Shown: one piece after another, positions 3,170 to 43,900 of the stretch
Layout of the letters: every line of letters starts with the position of its first letter
Position numbering within the stretch: position 1 is the first letter of the stretch
Assembly: GCA_965153355.1 (NCBI GenBank)
Contig: OZ231126.1
Span: 33,914,001 to 33,978,000 of the forward strand
Reading direction: 5' to 3'
Length of the DNA stretch: 64,000 nt
DNA from: Flaccisagitta enflata
Taxonomy: Eukaryota
Notes under the pieces: model-generated
What the model was told of the DNA's origin: nothing
Database searches by the model: none
What the model saw: only the letters and a program-made list of their open reading frames with translations
Made by a program: the position numbers and the translations under genes

Positions 3170-3633
3170 GCCATTACTAGGGGCAATCATGGAGAGGATG
3201 AACGGCCTTGGTGACTGAAATTTTTTGCAGAAACTAATCTAAAGATAGCAAAACTGAAAATGGGCAAATTTTGTTTGAGTTTCAGAATGGAACTTTTTTT
3301 AAGATTGACTGATATTTTTGAAACGGCTTATCATAGCCTCTTGGGACCAAGTTTTTTGAACTCCTCACATAAAAAACTTTCCAAAGTACTTAATAGTGCA
3401 GCACTCCTTGACCAGTATTGCACCTTTATCCCTGTGCATGATGATTGCGTTTTTTATGGCCTAAGTAGTAGCAATCCAAATGACAATCTAATTAACCTTT
3501 CCAAAAGGAGGCACACCTACGATTCATTTTTGCCAAGTGGTATACATTTTCCTCTGAGATCTGCCTACTTGTCTAATTTTCAATGCCTGCCTGATACCCC
3601 TTTCTCGACTTTCTTGAGTTTTTTTCCGGACAT

Positions 3634-4238
3634 TACTATCTAGGAAATAATTATGGAATCAAAAAGGGTGCGATTTGATTTATCAAACAAATTCTGTTAA
3701 AACCATGATACTGATCTCATAAGCACCTCAAGTTACATTTTTGTTAACTGTTATCTTCAGTTTTGCAGCTAGGGGGCGGTTGATAAAGATTTTCATACAG
3801 ATTATTAGGGTCTTAATCTGCCATCTGTGAGCGGTTATTGCCAGTTTATCATTTATTGGAGAGTTTCCATTGTTTTGCTTGTAATTTCTGAACGGTTGAA
3901 GCCACAGAAACCAGATTGCGCTCATCTTGAAGATTTTTCAATGTAGATAAATTTGTTTTTTTTTTTCAAAGTTATTCGCCTTTCTAGAAGCGGAGATTTC
4001 TCAAGCAGAAGAAAGCCCTAATTTTTGTGTTCTATCATTTTCACATTTTACTACCCATTTTGAAACTGAAAGTATTCACTCGTTTGCTTGTCATTTCCAG
4101 ACGGTTTGAGCTACAGAGACCAGATTGAAGATTTTTTGATGTAGATTAATCTGCTTCTTTGAAAAAAGTTATTTGGCATTTTTAGAAACCAAGATATCTA
4201 TGGTTGAAGTTGATTCCATAATTATTTCCTAGGTAGCA
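3634..4238. mobile_element. MITE of the same TIR family (~605 bp); mirror at 41362-41965
   Basis: tactatctaggaaataattatggaatcaa / ttgattccataattatttcctaggtagca. Confidence 0.85.
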
Positions 4239-40900: not shown

Positions 40901-43900
40901 GACTAGGAATTTAAAGAAAAATACACGAACGCGTTTGCAATAGCGCGATACTATAATGGAATAGTTAACAAACAGATTGTGACAAAGAAATGATTTGCAT
41001 AATGTAGTCTTCTTTCTTCCTCCTTTTTCTGATAACAACAAGTAATCGCAGAAAAGGTTCCAATGTCTCGATGATGAGTCAATGTACTTGAAGCAATCTG
41101 ATCTGATTTGATATTAGTCAGTCATTTTTTTTTCAACATCAGAATGGATGAACCTAAGGGATAATACCGACAACGTTCATTTTCATATAGTATATAGTTC
41201 TTAAAGTAACTCTTTCAACGATGTTTCTGTTGAATTATGTTGCTTTTCAAATCTGAGTGATTGCTCTGACAAGAGGGGGAGCAAATCGCGGTGGGCGATG
41301 TCTTTGACTCATGCCAGACGTTGCCCAGGCCCATTTGTTGGGAACACTTCAAGGAGGGCGCTGCTACCTAGGAAATAATTATGGAATCAACTTCAACCAT
41401 AGATATCTTGGTTTCTAAAAATGCCAAATAACTTTTTTCAAAGAAGCAGATTAATCTACATCAAAAAATCTTCAATCTGGTCTCTGTAGCTCAAACCGTC
41501 TGGAAATGACAAGCAAACGAGTGAATACTTTCAGTTTCAAAATGGGTAGTAAAATGTGAAAATGATAGAACACAAAAATTAGGGCTTTCTTCTGCTTGAG
41601 ATATCTCCGCTTCTAGAAAAGGCGAATAACTTTTTTTTAAAAAGCAAATTTATCTACATTGAAAAATCTTCAAGATGAGCGCAATCTGGTTTCTGTGGCT
41701 TCAACCGTTCAGAAATGACAAGCAAAACAATGGAAACTCTCCAATAAATGATAAACTGGCAATAACCGCTCACAGATGGCAGATTAAGACCCTAATAATC
41801 TGTATGAAAATCTTCATCAACCGCCCCCTAGCTGCAAAACCGAATATATTAGTTAACAAATGTAGCTCATGAAGTGCTTATGAGATCAGTATCATGGTTT
41901 AACAGAATTTGTTTGATAAATCAAATCGCACCCTTTTTGATTCCATAATTATTTCCTAGATAGTAATGTCCGGAAAAAAACTCAAGAAAGTCGAGAAAGG
42001 GGTATCAGGCAGGCATTGAAAAACTTAGTAAGTCAACTTACAAAGTACAAAGGACAAGACCAGTCCCACGGCTTTCAACGTCGCTTGCAATTGCACAAGG
42101 GTGATGATGTAAAAGGACGGATAGCAAAAGTGGCTCAGGATAAATGGCATGAAATGGACAAATCGTTACCAATCGACAGACGAACACATTTATAGACCGA
42201 TGGACGTGGACCCATGCTGACTTGCTCACGAATGTTTATAAACTGAAAGGGGAAAAAAATGAAAGGAATGAAGGAGGAGAATCAAGGGTGAAATAGAAAA
42301 AAAGAGATTGGAGTTAGGAAGACTGGAAATCTGGAACGAAATAAAAAGGAGAGTGAATTAGAAATGAAAGCTGTAATTTTTTCCGGGGCTCTGATATGAA
42401 TCTGGTTTCGGATTAGAAAAAAAAAGAGCTTCTTCCACATGATTTTTTCTTTCCCGTTTCCAAGCTCGAAGTCTTTTTCCATCGTATGTTCGTCGGTCTG
42501 TTTTCCCCTCTGTTACCCTTGAATATTCTTATTTCCATCCTAATGTGTGTATTTTAAATTGTGTGTGTGTGTGTCTCTCTCTCTCTCTCTCTCTCTCTCT
42601 CTCTCTCTCTCTCTCTCTCTCTCTCTCTTCTCTCGACATAGCGGTTGCGCGTTCGAAGAGCAGATTTCTTTTTTTCCTGACTAGAAATAATTCAAAAGAG
42701 GGAAGAGACCCACACGTGCGTACGAACGAGCGAGGACAGGGGCACCCGTGCGAGCGAGTTCAGGTGCTGCATGCTGGTGTGTGAATGAGGGCAAATGAAC
42801 AGACACCCACGGGAACATACTGGCACAGATCCCACCACCATAAATAACGATTACCTGTCACCCTATGATTACCCGGTCATCACAATTAAATCACCGTAAA
42901 TTACAGAGTAATAAGTGCAACTCTGTCTCTGTCTGTAAATTTTAGAAAAAGAAAAAAACCCAAAAAGCAGCGGTGGCGTGGCAGTGGCAGCAGTAGTGAA
43001 ACAAATGGCGGTGTCGTGGTTATGTAAACGGTCACGGCCAGCGATGTATGGCAGCTTGGAGCTTAGGGACTTCACAGCCAATTTCAAGCATGACAGCAAA
43101 TCTAAGCACAACTGCCTTTTAACTGATTTGCTATGATTCCTATGCTTTCTTCACCAATACTAAACAGAAAGTAACAAATAAAAGAGTGAAATTTATCTAG
43201 ATAATTATTTCTTTATCAAATAGGTCTGTTTTCAATTAAGTCATACAATTTAGTGTATTGTGCACAAAAAATATCTTAAAAAACTGTATGGCAGGTTGGG
43301 GAAAGCATAGTTATTATCAACACATATCAATCATGCCCTTGCCTCATTTTGTTTTGCAAACTCATCTATCATATCCCCCATAGGATTTGAGTCAATAGTC
43401 TTTTTTCTGTTTATCTATCTATCTATCTCTCTGTTTGTCTGTCTGTTTGTTTGTGTGTGTGTGTGTGTGTGTGTGTGTGTGTGTGTGTGTGTGTGTGTGT
43501 GTGTGTGTGTGTGTGTGTCTCTCTCTTTTTCTCCCTATCTTCAATTTTTTTTTTCACATCACATTTTCAAGCCCGACAAACGTTCAAGCCCAACAGCAGG
43601 GACGTCATGTGATATCCCTGAAGTCCCTTGCCATACATCGCTGATCACGGCAGAGGACCTGTTGTATCGGCTCATAGGTGGTGTTGGTTGTAAAGAGAGG
43701 TTGGAGATGGCGGTAGTGGCAGAAGGAAAGTGGCGGAACTGGCGATGGCGCTGGCAGTTGGGTATGGAGGTGGAAGTGGGGTAAGACTTGATAATGGCAT
43801 TTGTTATAGAAAGGGGGGGGGCGGAAACAGTGAGTTGGCACTTGGCAGTGGAGCCGTTGAGGCGGTAGGAAGCAGGGGGCCAGGGGCAGTAGTGGTGGCA

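Follow-up and report, generated by a model that had tools for sequence, protein, structure and literature searches.

Does the 38-kb palindrome in contig OZ231126.1 of the Flaccisagitta enflata assembly (GCA_965153355.1) belong to the animal's genome, or did it arise on the way from DNA to contig? The question is raised by a window of 64,000 nucleotides (positions 33,914,001 to 33,978,000 of the forward strand), to which all coordinates below refer, and in which the 5' part of a zinc-finger gene runs into a short loop and is then repeated in inverted orientation. Our answer is that the palindrome is probably an assembly artefact: one long-read molecule, folded back or chimeric and made in vitro, that was built into the contig.

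A sequence-only reading had proposed two arms of about 19 kb around a 201-bp spacer, and this architecture was borne out by an inverted-pair search, by BLAST and by MAFFT. The palindrome is seen directly in the window and has the following parts:

3576..3577, no strand: sharp junction between the upstream flank (U) and the left arm
3577..23282, plus strand: left arm (L), 19,706 nt, holding the 5' part of a C2H2 zinc-finger gene in good quality, along with introns, SSRs and dispersed repeats
23283..23483, no strand: spacer, corresponding to the fold-back loop, 201 nt, unique, interior of a multi-copy terminal inverted repeat (TIR) element
23484..42022, minus strand: right arm (R), 18,539 nt, an inverted copy in which 100%-identical blocks are mixed with patches of read-like noise
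42022..42023, no strand: sharp junction between the right arm and the downstream flank (D), without adapter remnant

All but one of the 21 inverted pairs (20/21) are colinear pieces of the arms. The innermost pair (22209-23282 and 23484-24557) comprises 1074 nt that are 100% complementary and lie 201 nt apart, while BLAST HSPs cover the arms end to end, from 3577/42022 to 23282/23484. Alignment of L with the reverse complement of R gave 20,103 columns, of which 16,860 match, 1,282 mismatch, and 397 and 1,564 are gaps in L and R, respectively, a similarity that is far beyond chance. With arm ends at 23282 and 23484, the sequence turns back at the same place, on the opposite strand and within about 200 bp, which is fold-back geometry. 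No third, direct copy of an arm follows a second inverted junction in the window: the sequence past 42022 resembles neither arm nor U.

Each arm carries the same truncated gene. Its coding segments lie on the plus strand in L and on the minus strand in R, so that the two copies converge on the centre. Seven C2H2 fingers can be counted, of which fingers 1, 3, 5 and 7 are split by introns:

About 16100-16793, 17137-17325, 17721-17895 and 18524-18640 (within 16100..18640), plus strand: coding segments of fingers 1-5, from Pfam and a motif scan
22907..23225, plus strand: last coding exon present ('exon 11' of the sequence-only reading), encoding finger 6, an acidic tract and finger 7 up to its middle
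23541..23859, minus strand: mirror of exon 22907-23225, identical with 0 differences, finger at 23839-23777

The Pfam zf-C2H2 profile scored 29.0 bits on segment 17646-17900, over the cut-off of 25.2; three other segments gave weaker, sub-cut-off matches. The score on exon 22907-23225 was 24.3 bits (E 3.8e-5), under that cut-off. Complete C2H2 motifs within exons number 3 in L versus 2 in R. Exon 22907-23225 ends in ...FQCDKCDKAFK(R), with a splice donor AAAAG/GTAACA at 23225/23226. The coding segments, their strands and the position of this donor inside finger 7 thus uphold the proposal of two convergent gene copies broken in the middle of that finger. Neither the second half of finger 7, nor an exon 12, nor a further finger was found in U or D, where matches to a loose pattern look random; this absence is again a direct observation. 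Since finger 7 is cut at the donor and its remainder is missing from both flanks, the gene cannot end there. The lack of a 3' end had been offered as an argument for an artefact. The truncation itself is seen, but it is a weak argument: a real fold-back would cut the gene short just as well. Queries consisting of single exons retrieved no orthologue from the protein collection, which is weak evidence.

More telling is the way in which the arms differ. They are 100% identical across kilobase-long blocks, and a large share of their differences falls into one region:

24547..28195, minus strand: main noise stretch, within the quarter of R nearest the centre, paired with L 17473-22219 at about 60% identity and starting 1.07 kb past the spacer

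Three adjacent islands, all centre-proximal, hold 2,016 of the 3,243 differing columns (62%); by a hand sum, noise islands make up about 82% of the inner 5.8 kb versus about 16% of the outer 13.9 kb. Relative to L 17581-21971, R lacks 1046 bases in 145 runs of 1-41 nt, has 29 extra bases and carries 828 substitutions, giving a ratio of missing to extra bases of 36:1 and a difference of about 40%. The noise is evenly spread (224-323 matches per bin in nine 500-nt bins) and borders directly, with sharp edges, on blocks of 100% identity. Exons are damaged as much as introns. L has open coding segments at 17721-17895, 18524-18640 and 21198-21563, where it counts 174, 117 and 366 nt; their counterparts in R measure 147, 74 and 249 nt, with 71, 78 and 190 differing columns, respectively. 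At least four coding segments are garbled or frameshifted in the R copy, finger 4 being among the garbled parts. Dispersed repeats tell the same story: read from L, patch 17459-22179 gives 22 BLAST matches (1968 bits) with repeat families in other parts of the window, and read from R it gives 0. Within the main noise stretch, L is therefore the good copy, and on its sequence profile the noise is read error rather than divergence. The arms are not of comparable quality, and their differences are not those of natural, substitution-type divergence.

The sequence-only reading had remarked on a concentration of error patches in one arm. This holds for the largest patch and for 12164-12486, while some small SSR-rich patches are ambiguous. 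In patch 8229-9528, R is not the poorer copy (repeat matches of 524 bits versus 364 for L) and indels go both ways. In exon 16100-16793, R lacks 9 nt at one point and has 3 nt more than L at another; each change keeps the frame and falls within triplet repeats, and the R frame stays open. These differences look like natural variants, not noise. Isolated substitutions also separate the arms.

A multi-copy TIR transposon, beginning 2 nt inside intron 11, contains the turn-around itself. This is seen directly in the window and had escaped the sequence-only reading:

23227..23282, plus strand: left TIR region, TA followed by the terminal repeat, the 56 nt that close the left arm, with a family-conserved core at 23227-23257
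23484..23539, minus strand: mirrored TIR region, which may be the right end of the element itself or else the palindrome's mirror image
55831..56439, plus strand: second member of the TIR family, 609 nt, carrying its two terminal repeats and bordered by TA at either end

A 28-nt TIR pattern has 4 matches in the window versus 0 expected, and these bound 23227-23539 and 55831-56439; the same pattern had 0 matches in metagenome contigs. The 55831-56439 copy has TA ahead of each of its ends, provided that ACACCCC is counted as the beginning of the repeat. The terminal 31 nt have very high depth in three DNA runs (the core has a summed word depth of about 1e5), and other copies of the family diverge after 23257. 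The central, TA-flanked element is one that we take to be Tc1/mariner-like. Judged from its letters, it may be either a complete 313-nt MITE-like element (23227-23539) or only the start of an element joined to its palindromic mirror. A right end with TA at the centre is uninformative here because the symmetry of the palindrome yields both anyway. Folding leads to the same ambiguity: the 353-nt centre folds at -114.6 kcal/mol (z = -19.6), the spacer alone, folded as DNA, has no self-complementarity of its own (z = -0.25; 70 of 200 shuffles fold as well), and complementarity stops abruptly at 23282/23484, which fits a complete element and a mirror image alike. A fold-back templated by the TIRs of a complete 313-nt MITE can therefore not be claimed, since the right TIR may be a mirror and the spacer is without decaying complementarity.

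Public data were probed across the centre (22340-24426). The DNA runs X1-X3 consist of very short contigs (roughly 50 nt), mostly from high-copy repeats, and zero depth over the unique parts of this region proves nothing. Matches there reach summed word depths of up to millions. The spacer has a summed word depth of 2,900-9,700 in runs X1 and X2, versus roughly 70-180 for the exact-match contigs listed nearby. Among the 24 pieces listed of 35,007, none bridges 23282/23283 or 23483/23484 with 31 letters on each side. One 141-letter contig of run X1 matches 23172-23228 with one difference and then continues for 84 letters unlike the window, a weak hint that a close variant of exon 11 runs on into other sequence. 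The end of exon 11 had 0 matches in metagenome contigs. In RNA run X10, 108 reads matched, 105 of them partly, all on the 36-nt low-complexity stretch 23007-23043 and its mirror and with flanks unlike the window, which is no evidence on expression.

U and D are ordinary repeat-bearing DNA, and 22 kb of D follow the right arm. When U was compared with the reverse complement of D past the arm ends, no homology was found: the local score was 20 versus a shuffle maximum of 19, anchored alignments did not rise above shuffles, and no re-convergence of the two flanks was seen within the window. A stretch on the D side of 42022 resembles a nanopore ligation adapter by eye. This was ruled out by an adapter scan, in which the best local score for the ONT ligation adapter in the window was 14, versus 15-17 in 10 of 10 block-shuffled windows, with no top match at 3577, 23283-23483 or 42022. 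A missed hairpin adapter or fragment-end read-through is likewise out as the origin of the centre, which consists of genomic repeat sequence.

How could a fold-back read produce this pattern? U, the left arm and the beginning of the TIR element would make up the true locus, a zinc-finger gene with a transposon 2 nt past the donor of intron 11. The turn-around and the right arm would come from one physically palindromic long-read molecule, made in vitro, during library preparation or whole-genome amplification, when a nascent or displaced strand folded back over about 200 nt and copied itself. The assembler would have followed this molecule back along the gene and then into unrelated D. Regions of R that could be corrected by short or other reads would have become letter-identical to L; over about 3.6 kb, from 1 kb past the fold, base calls would have been too poor and the raw sequence would have been kept. 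The missing-base profile would be that of a nanopore read after the inverted-duplicate junction clears the pore, with the arms zipping up behind it. Noise that is centre-proximal and in R is as expected for a read running from L to R. The nanopore platform is suggested by the error profile alone. From the persistence of the noise we infer that one or very few molecules, all read in one direction, support the right arm, because reads in both directions, to be expected of a real locus at normal depth, would have fixed it: reverse reads would have given a good R and been anchored by D and by the asymmetric spacer. An in-vitro origin and the route by which D was attached are our deductions in the same sense. 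As the R/D junction is sharp and adapter-free, a single-molecule model has to assume either another chimeric junction or, upstream of 3577, a difference between haplotypes or paralogues.

Published work on such reads provides close parallels. According to Heinz, Meyerson and Li (2026, PMC12870357), foldback artefact reads are two opposite-strand segments within 200 bp of each other and account for 0.55-0.6% of ONT genomic DNA reads; most have no searchable sequence between the halves, so that an adapter is not required, and one is retained in a minority. PMC13141652 gives 0.18-7.33% of inverted repeats in ligation libraries. The palindrome resembles the foldback reads of these two sources in its opposite-strand segments, in break points about 200 nt apart (here 201) and in being near-perfect with no adapter between the halves; there, the palindrome is a physical molecule from library preparation. 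It differs in being an assembled contig rather than a read, in the 22 kb of unrelated sequence that follow, and in that support by a single read is deduced here rather than counted. According to Spealman et al. (2020, PMC7229812), nanopore reads beside inverted-duplicate junctions are of low quality, with wrong and missed calls, for which pairing of the arms on the trans side is blamed. This recalls our low-accuracy stretch of missed bases by the junction, in the arm read second. That paper concerns reads with quality scores, whereas only a consensus is at hand here, and the first 1.07 kb past the spacer are perfect in R, presumably corrected. Amplification offers another route to such molecules: the Pacasus paper (PMC6218980) describes palindromes from whole-genome amplification that reach assemblies as inverted duplications and are gone once reads are split. 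The likeness is that of inverted duplications in a contig derived from palindromic reads, and several junctions per long molecule would also explain the junction with D; unlike that case, nothing shows that the DNA of the window was amplified.

Other explanations have to account for the same observations. The palindrome may be a real, very young germline inverted duplication, in which a break or template switch at the intron-11 transposon led a strand to copy 19.7 kb, a second junction joined it to D, and R was badly assembled. We regard this as unlikely without being far-fetched: both outer junctions are clean, adapter-free genomic sequence between ordinary repeat-bearing flanks, the axial TIR element (a short inverted repeat) and the strong 353-nt fold suit fold-back models, and a few differences between the arms resemble natural in-frame variants. 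A transposon end or short inverted repeat at the axis is likewise predicted by in-vivo fold-back models. The error signature described in PMC7229812 also arises on real inverted duplications, and one-sided noise could accompany a real palindrome if polishing reads all chose the better arm. Against this stand about 3.6 kb of raw-read-like sequence in R, which reverse-direction reads should have corrected, and kilobase-scale 100% identity between the arms, which demands a very recent event. Moreover, no independent data set was seen with the centre or the D junction, among the 24 pieces listed of 35,007 or in the metagenome scan for exon 11. A perfect 19-kb palindrome with a spacer of only 201 nt is expected to be unstable in vivo. 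The fuller scenario, in which the intron-11 transposon triggered an in-vivo fold-back, 19.7 kb were duplicated tail to tail to leave truncated copies 201 nt apart, and the flaws of R reflect nanopore or polishing failure, appears rather doubtful. In ODIRA, the product of in-vivo fold-back at short inverted repeats is reportedly an inverted triplication, which contains a second inverted junction. The locus is similar in that its inverted duplication has a short unique loop and sits at an element bearing terminal inverted repeats; unlike ODIRA, its right arm ends in unrelated DNA, with no third copy.

Alternatively, a purely computational mis-join, with no palindromic molecule, may have united two alleles or paralogues, one preceded by U and the other by the reverse complement of D, tail to tail at the intron-11 repeat. 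Such a join would explain how one 19.7-kb segment borders, at an identical base, on two unrelated flanks, and why the arms differ by isolated substitutions and by in-frame SSR changes; its axis would lie in a high-copy element, a typical site of assembly-graph tangles. It is nevertheless improbable, as the inverted sequence common to the axis is at most 56 nt, presumably too short for long-read overlaps, a second allele at normal read support would not leave 3.6 kb of deletion-type noise, and U and D do not re-converge within the window. Next to no weight falls on an old, natural pair of inverted paralogues in which gene conversion keeps identical blocks and the patches are true divergence. 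Large sex-chromosome palindromes do show block-wise identity, and like this locus they have arms tens of kilobases long with near-identical blocks; their spacers measure kilobases, their genes are intact in either arm and the identity of the arms is high throughout, unlike the 201-nt spacer, truncated gene and single corrupted arm found here. The even difference of about 40%, with 36 missing bases to each extra one, the sharp borders with 100%-identical blocks, exons as damaged as introns, and a noise stretch in R without any dispersed-repeat similarity all argue against it. Divergence with gene conversion is in practice refuted by this error profile, the lost repeat matches and the broken exons. 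We thus arrive, as did the sequence-only reading, at an artefact as likelier than a real palindrome, with a sharper argument from the errors in one arm and with that from the missing 3' end reduced to a weak one.

If the fold-back molecule is indeed the source of the palindrome, the contig is a mis-join in which about 18.5 kb of false inverted sequence duplicate a truncated gene model. The real 3' part of the gene would be displaced elsewhere, the link to the 22 kb of D would be doubtful, and annotation of the locus, copy-number estimates and small-RNA inferences would be untrustworthy. The combination seen here would also provide a signature for fold-back reads in polished assemblies: a spacer of about 200 nt, kilobase-long perfect blocks, and a centre-proximal stretch in one arm from which bases are almost only missing. 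If the palindrome is real, it would be a fresh case, from an animal genome, of fold-back duplication associated with a transposon, and the locus would be a candidate source of hairpin RNA; transcribed through, it may produce a putative multi-kb hairpin RNA directed against the intact allele or a paralogue of the gene.

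The 38.4-kb inverted repeat proposed by the sequence-only reading was borne out by a repeat search, BLAST and MAFFT. It consists of a left arm (3577-23282, plus strand) and a right arm (23484-42022, minus strand) around a spacer at 23283-23483. The repeat search returned 21 inverted pairs in the window, 20 of which are colinear pieces of the two arms. The innermost pair (22209-23282 and 23484-24557; 1074 nt) is 100% complementary across a gap of 201 nt, and the BLAST match extends from 3577/42022 to 23282/23484, where complementarity ends abruptly. When the right arm (18,539 nt) was reverse-complemented and aligned to the left (19,706 nt) with MAFFT, 20,103 columns resulted, with 16,860 matches, 1,282 mismatches, and gaps in 397 columns of the left and 1,564 of the right arm. 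The window contains no N bases. Both outer borders are sharp, because the left flank (1-3576) bears no relation to the right flank (42023-64000) read in reverse complement: their local score was 20 for a shuffle maximum of 19, and their end-anchored alignments did not exceed shuffles. Among other repeats, a 49-nt tandem repeat (6144-6621, mirrored at 38980-39457) has 9.9 copies in both arms, and the right flank carries a 154-nt repeat of 5.9 copies at 62360-63290 (alternatively scored as two copies of 319 nt) and a 146-nt repeat of 2.3 copies at 46039-46383. Nested tandem repeats with periods of 24, 48, 84, 108, 132 and 300 nt occupy 51719-52691, and both strands there hold 190-198-aa open frames in which Gly, Ser, Ile, Asp, Thr and Ala are abundant.

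The left arm encodes a C2H2 zinc-finger protein on the plus strand, and the right arm its mirror image on the minus strand. Pfam zf-C2H2 was detected at 17646-17900 with 29.0 bits (cut-off 25.2) and more weakly in three further segments, all under the cut-off. Seven fingers can be counted from the exon borders, with introns splitting fingers 1, 3, 5 and 7. As previously claimed from the sequence, the gene is truncated in the first half of finger 7, where its last coding segment, named exon 11, closes at a donor:

22907-23225, plus strand: last coding segment, preceded by the acceptor ...TCTTAG and ending in ...FQCDKCDKAFK(R) at the donor AAAAG|GTAACA

A motif scan found three complete in-exon finger motifs in the left arm, two in the right and none in either flank, and looser half-finger patterns in the flanks gave nothing convincing. 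Single exons used as queries found no relatives of the gene in the protein collection.

Differences between the arms are spread in a manner unlike divergence. They cluster in 33 islands separated by 100% identical blocks of up to 2.6 kb, and 2,016 of the 3,243 differing columns lie in three adjacent islands (left 17473-22219, right 28195-24547). Throughout the main island (left 17581-21971), only 224-323 positions match in every 500-nt bin (nine bins); relative to the left arm, the right lacks 1,046 bases (in 145 runs of 1-41 nt), carries 29 extra ones and is substituted at 828 positions. This noise stretch starts 1.07 kb past the spacer and lies between two SSR arrays, one of TGT (17360-17620) and one of a 20-mer (21898-22328); SSRs with di-, tri- and tetranucleotide units are very abundant across the window. 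Here the left arm is the good copy. Its finger-4 exon is readable throughout and garbled on the right, three of its coding segments are open while their right counterparts are 15-37% shorter with 71-190 differing columns, and BLAST against dispersed repeat families elsewhere in the window gave 22 matches (1,968 bits) for the left and none for the right. One such family, SINE-like and about 200 nt long, occurs at 1575-1778, 5928-6119, 10880-11119, 13400-13617 and 19641-19820, with mirrors in the right arm; its copies are 69-77% identical to one another, and the one in the right noise stretch is past recognition. The sequence-only reading saw error patches concentrated in one arm, which holds for the main island and for the island at 12164-12486 (53 missing bases, 0 extra) but not for the patch at 8229-9528, where the right arm is not the poorer copy (524 bits against 364 for the left) and indels go both ways. 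Two in-frame indels in triplet repeats, a deletion of 9 nt and an insertion of 3 nt, separate the arms (16573-16699 versus 29088-28968) within the exon at 16100-16793, which is rich in Q and G; the right reading frame stays open. These two regions do not fit simple noise in the right arm; the exon indels could be allelic SSR variation instead of read noise, a hint that part of the right arm perhaps comes from another haplotype.

The last 56 nt of either arm belong to a transposon-like element that begins 2 nt past the exon-11 donor. Its 28-nt terminal pattern has four matches in the window, with 0 expected, which form two inverted pairs bounding these intervals:

23227-23539: centre of the palindrome, putative element of the terminal inverted repeat (TIR) family, bounded by one inverted pair of the terminal pattern
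55831-56439: second element of the family, 609 nt, flanked by TA on either side and carrying its two 28-nt terminal repeats (one mismatch)

The 201-nt spacer shows no relation to the interior of the second element. The summed word depth of the terminal 31 nt (23227-23257) in public runs is near 1e5, other copies diverging directly afterwards, and the spacer interior is multi-copy too (depth 2,900-9,700). The right terminal repeat at the centre is either the element's own second end or only a mirror image due to the palindrome; if the former, a MITE-like element of 313 nt would lie complete at the centre, and its repeats could have served as template for the fold. The spacer by itself folds no better than shuffles (z = -0.25); for the centre plus its arms, the fold has -114.6 kcal/mol (z = -19.6).

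Public sequencing runs sharing sequence with the window were the DNA run X1 (best, share 0.52), a second run of the same organism, several marine metagenome runs (0.06-0.14) and one raw RNA run; reads were compared with the SSR-free centre. The DNA runs consist of very short contigs, whose matches are nearly all high-copy repeat, and unique parts of the centre received zero depth, which is uninformative in such data. Of the 35,007 pieces, 24 were listed, and not one of these spans either spacer border with 31 letters on both sides. The exon 11 end and the terminal pattern each had 0 matches in metagenome contigs, and RNA reads matched only a 36-nt low-complexity stretch, uninformative on expression. 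An 80-letter X1 contig matches 23172-23251 exactly, from the exon 11 end into the element. Another, of 141 letters, follows 23172-23228 with one difference before departing from the window for a further 84 letters; exon 11 thus has a close variant that continues differently. This contig may come from a paralogue or from an allele lacking the transposon, and it provides a lead to the true continuation of the gene. A very high-copy short repeat lies at 22550-22760 (mirror 24010-24160), and its summed word depth reaches 2.3 and 5.3 million in X1. In X3, a marine metagenome run, the depth is about 0.07-0.23 million. Related pieces occur at 2997-3167, 4695-4759, 49588-49663, 50341-50422, 58635-58772 and 63753-63819.

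Natural divergence is excluded by the pattern of differences in the main stretch, which points instead to raw long-read error, because nearly all gaps are missing bases, the damage is even and sharply bordered by perfect blocks, and exons are damaged like introns. Old divergence with gene conversion can thus be given almost no weight. Judged by the error profiles of the two platforms, the excess of missing over added bases suggests nanopore rather than PacBio continuous-read data. The error of about 40% is far above that of ordinary raw reads. In the part drawn on here, Spealman et al. (PMC7229812) describe nanopore reads adjoining inverted-duplicate junctions as low in quality, with wrong and missed base calls, the cause given being that the two arms pair once the junction is past the pore. 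The damage should therefore fall on the arm read second, the molecule here being read from left to right. On this pairing account, the molecule sequenced was itself a physical palindrome. A tail-to-tail join of two alleles or paralogues by computation alone appears improbable.

Since raw sequence persists in the right arm, that arm probably rests on one or very few molecules, all read in one direction. Were the locus real and covered at normal depth, there would be reads in the reverse direction too, anchored by the right flank and the asymmetric spacer, and they would have given a good right arm. This persistence argues against a real young palindrome, which we regard as unlikely, if somewhat less so than the computational join. 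One-sided noise could in principle arise at a real palindrome as well if the better arm drew all polishing reads, and a transposon end at the axis is also expected by in-vivo fold-back models. We favor, with reasonable confidence, the incorporation into the contig of a molecule that was folded back or chimeric. The perfect blocks broken at SSRs would then be the leftover of a single noisy read corrected with accurate short reads. A simple hairpin molecule leaves the junction of the right arm with the right flank unexplained; to account for it, one would have to invoke another chimeric junction within that molecule, a haplotype or paralogue whose upstream flank differs, or a genuine rearrangement. 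Multiple chimeric junctions per molecule are common after amplification.

Natural large palindromes have a kb-scale spacer, intact genes and uniformly high arm identity, none of which is found here, and the third copy of an ODIRA triplication is absent. Foldback artefacts, by contrast, are described in the sections consulted of PMC12870357 as two segments that lie within 200 bp of each other and on opposite strands, a geometry that the window palindrome shares, along with the one-arm error. The same source puts them at 0.55-0.6% of ONT genomic reads, most without an adapter between the halves, and suspects library preparation; accordingly, the lack of any adapter remnant at the palindrome junctions, each of which was searched, fits this class. 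Excerpts of two other reports put fold-back molecules at 0.18-7.33% of reads in ligation libraries (PMC13141652) and describe them as far commoner after whole-genome amplification, where they are carried into assemblies and appear there as inverted duplications (PMC6218980). In its workings the palindrome resembles a foldback-read artefact, and it most likely is one. It holds no new biology unless it turns out to be real; the result serves to flag a probable mis-join and a gene model that is truncated and duplicated, and provides a sequence signature by which fold-back reads in polished assemblies can be recognised.
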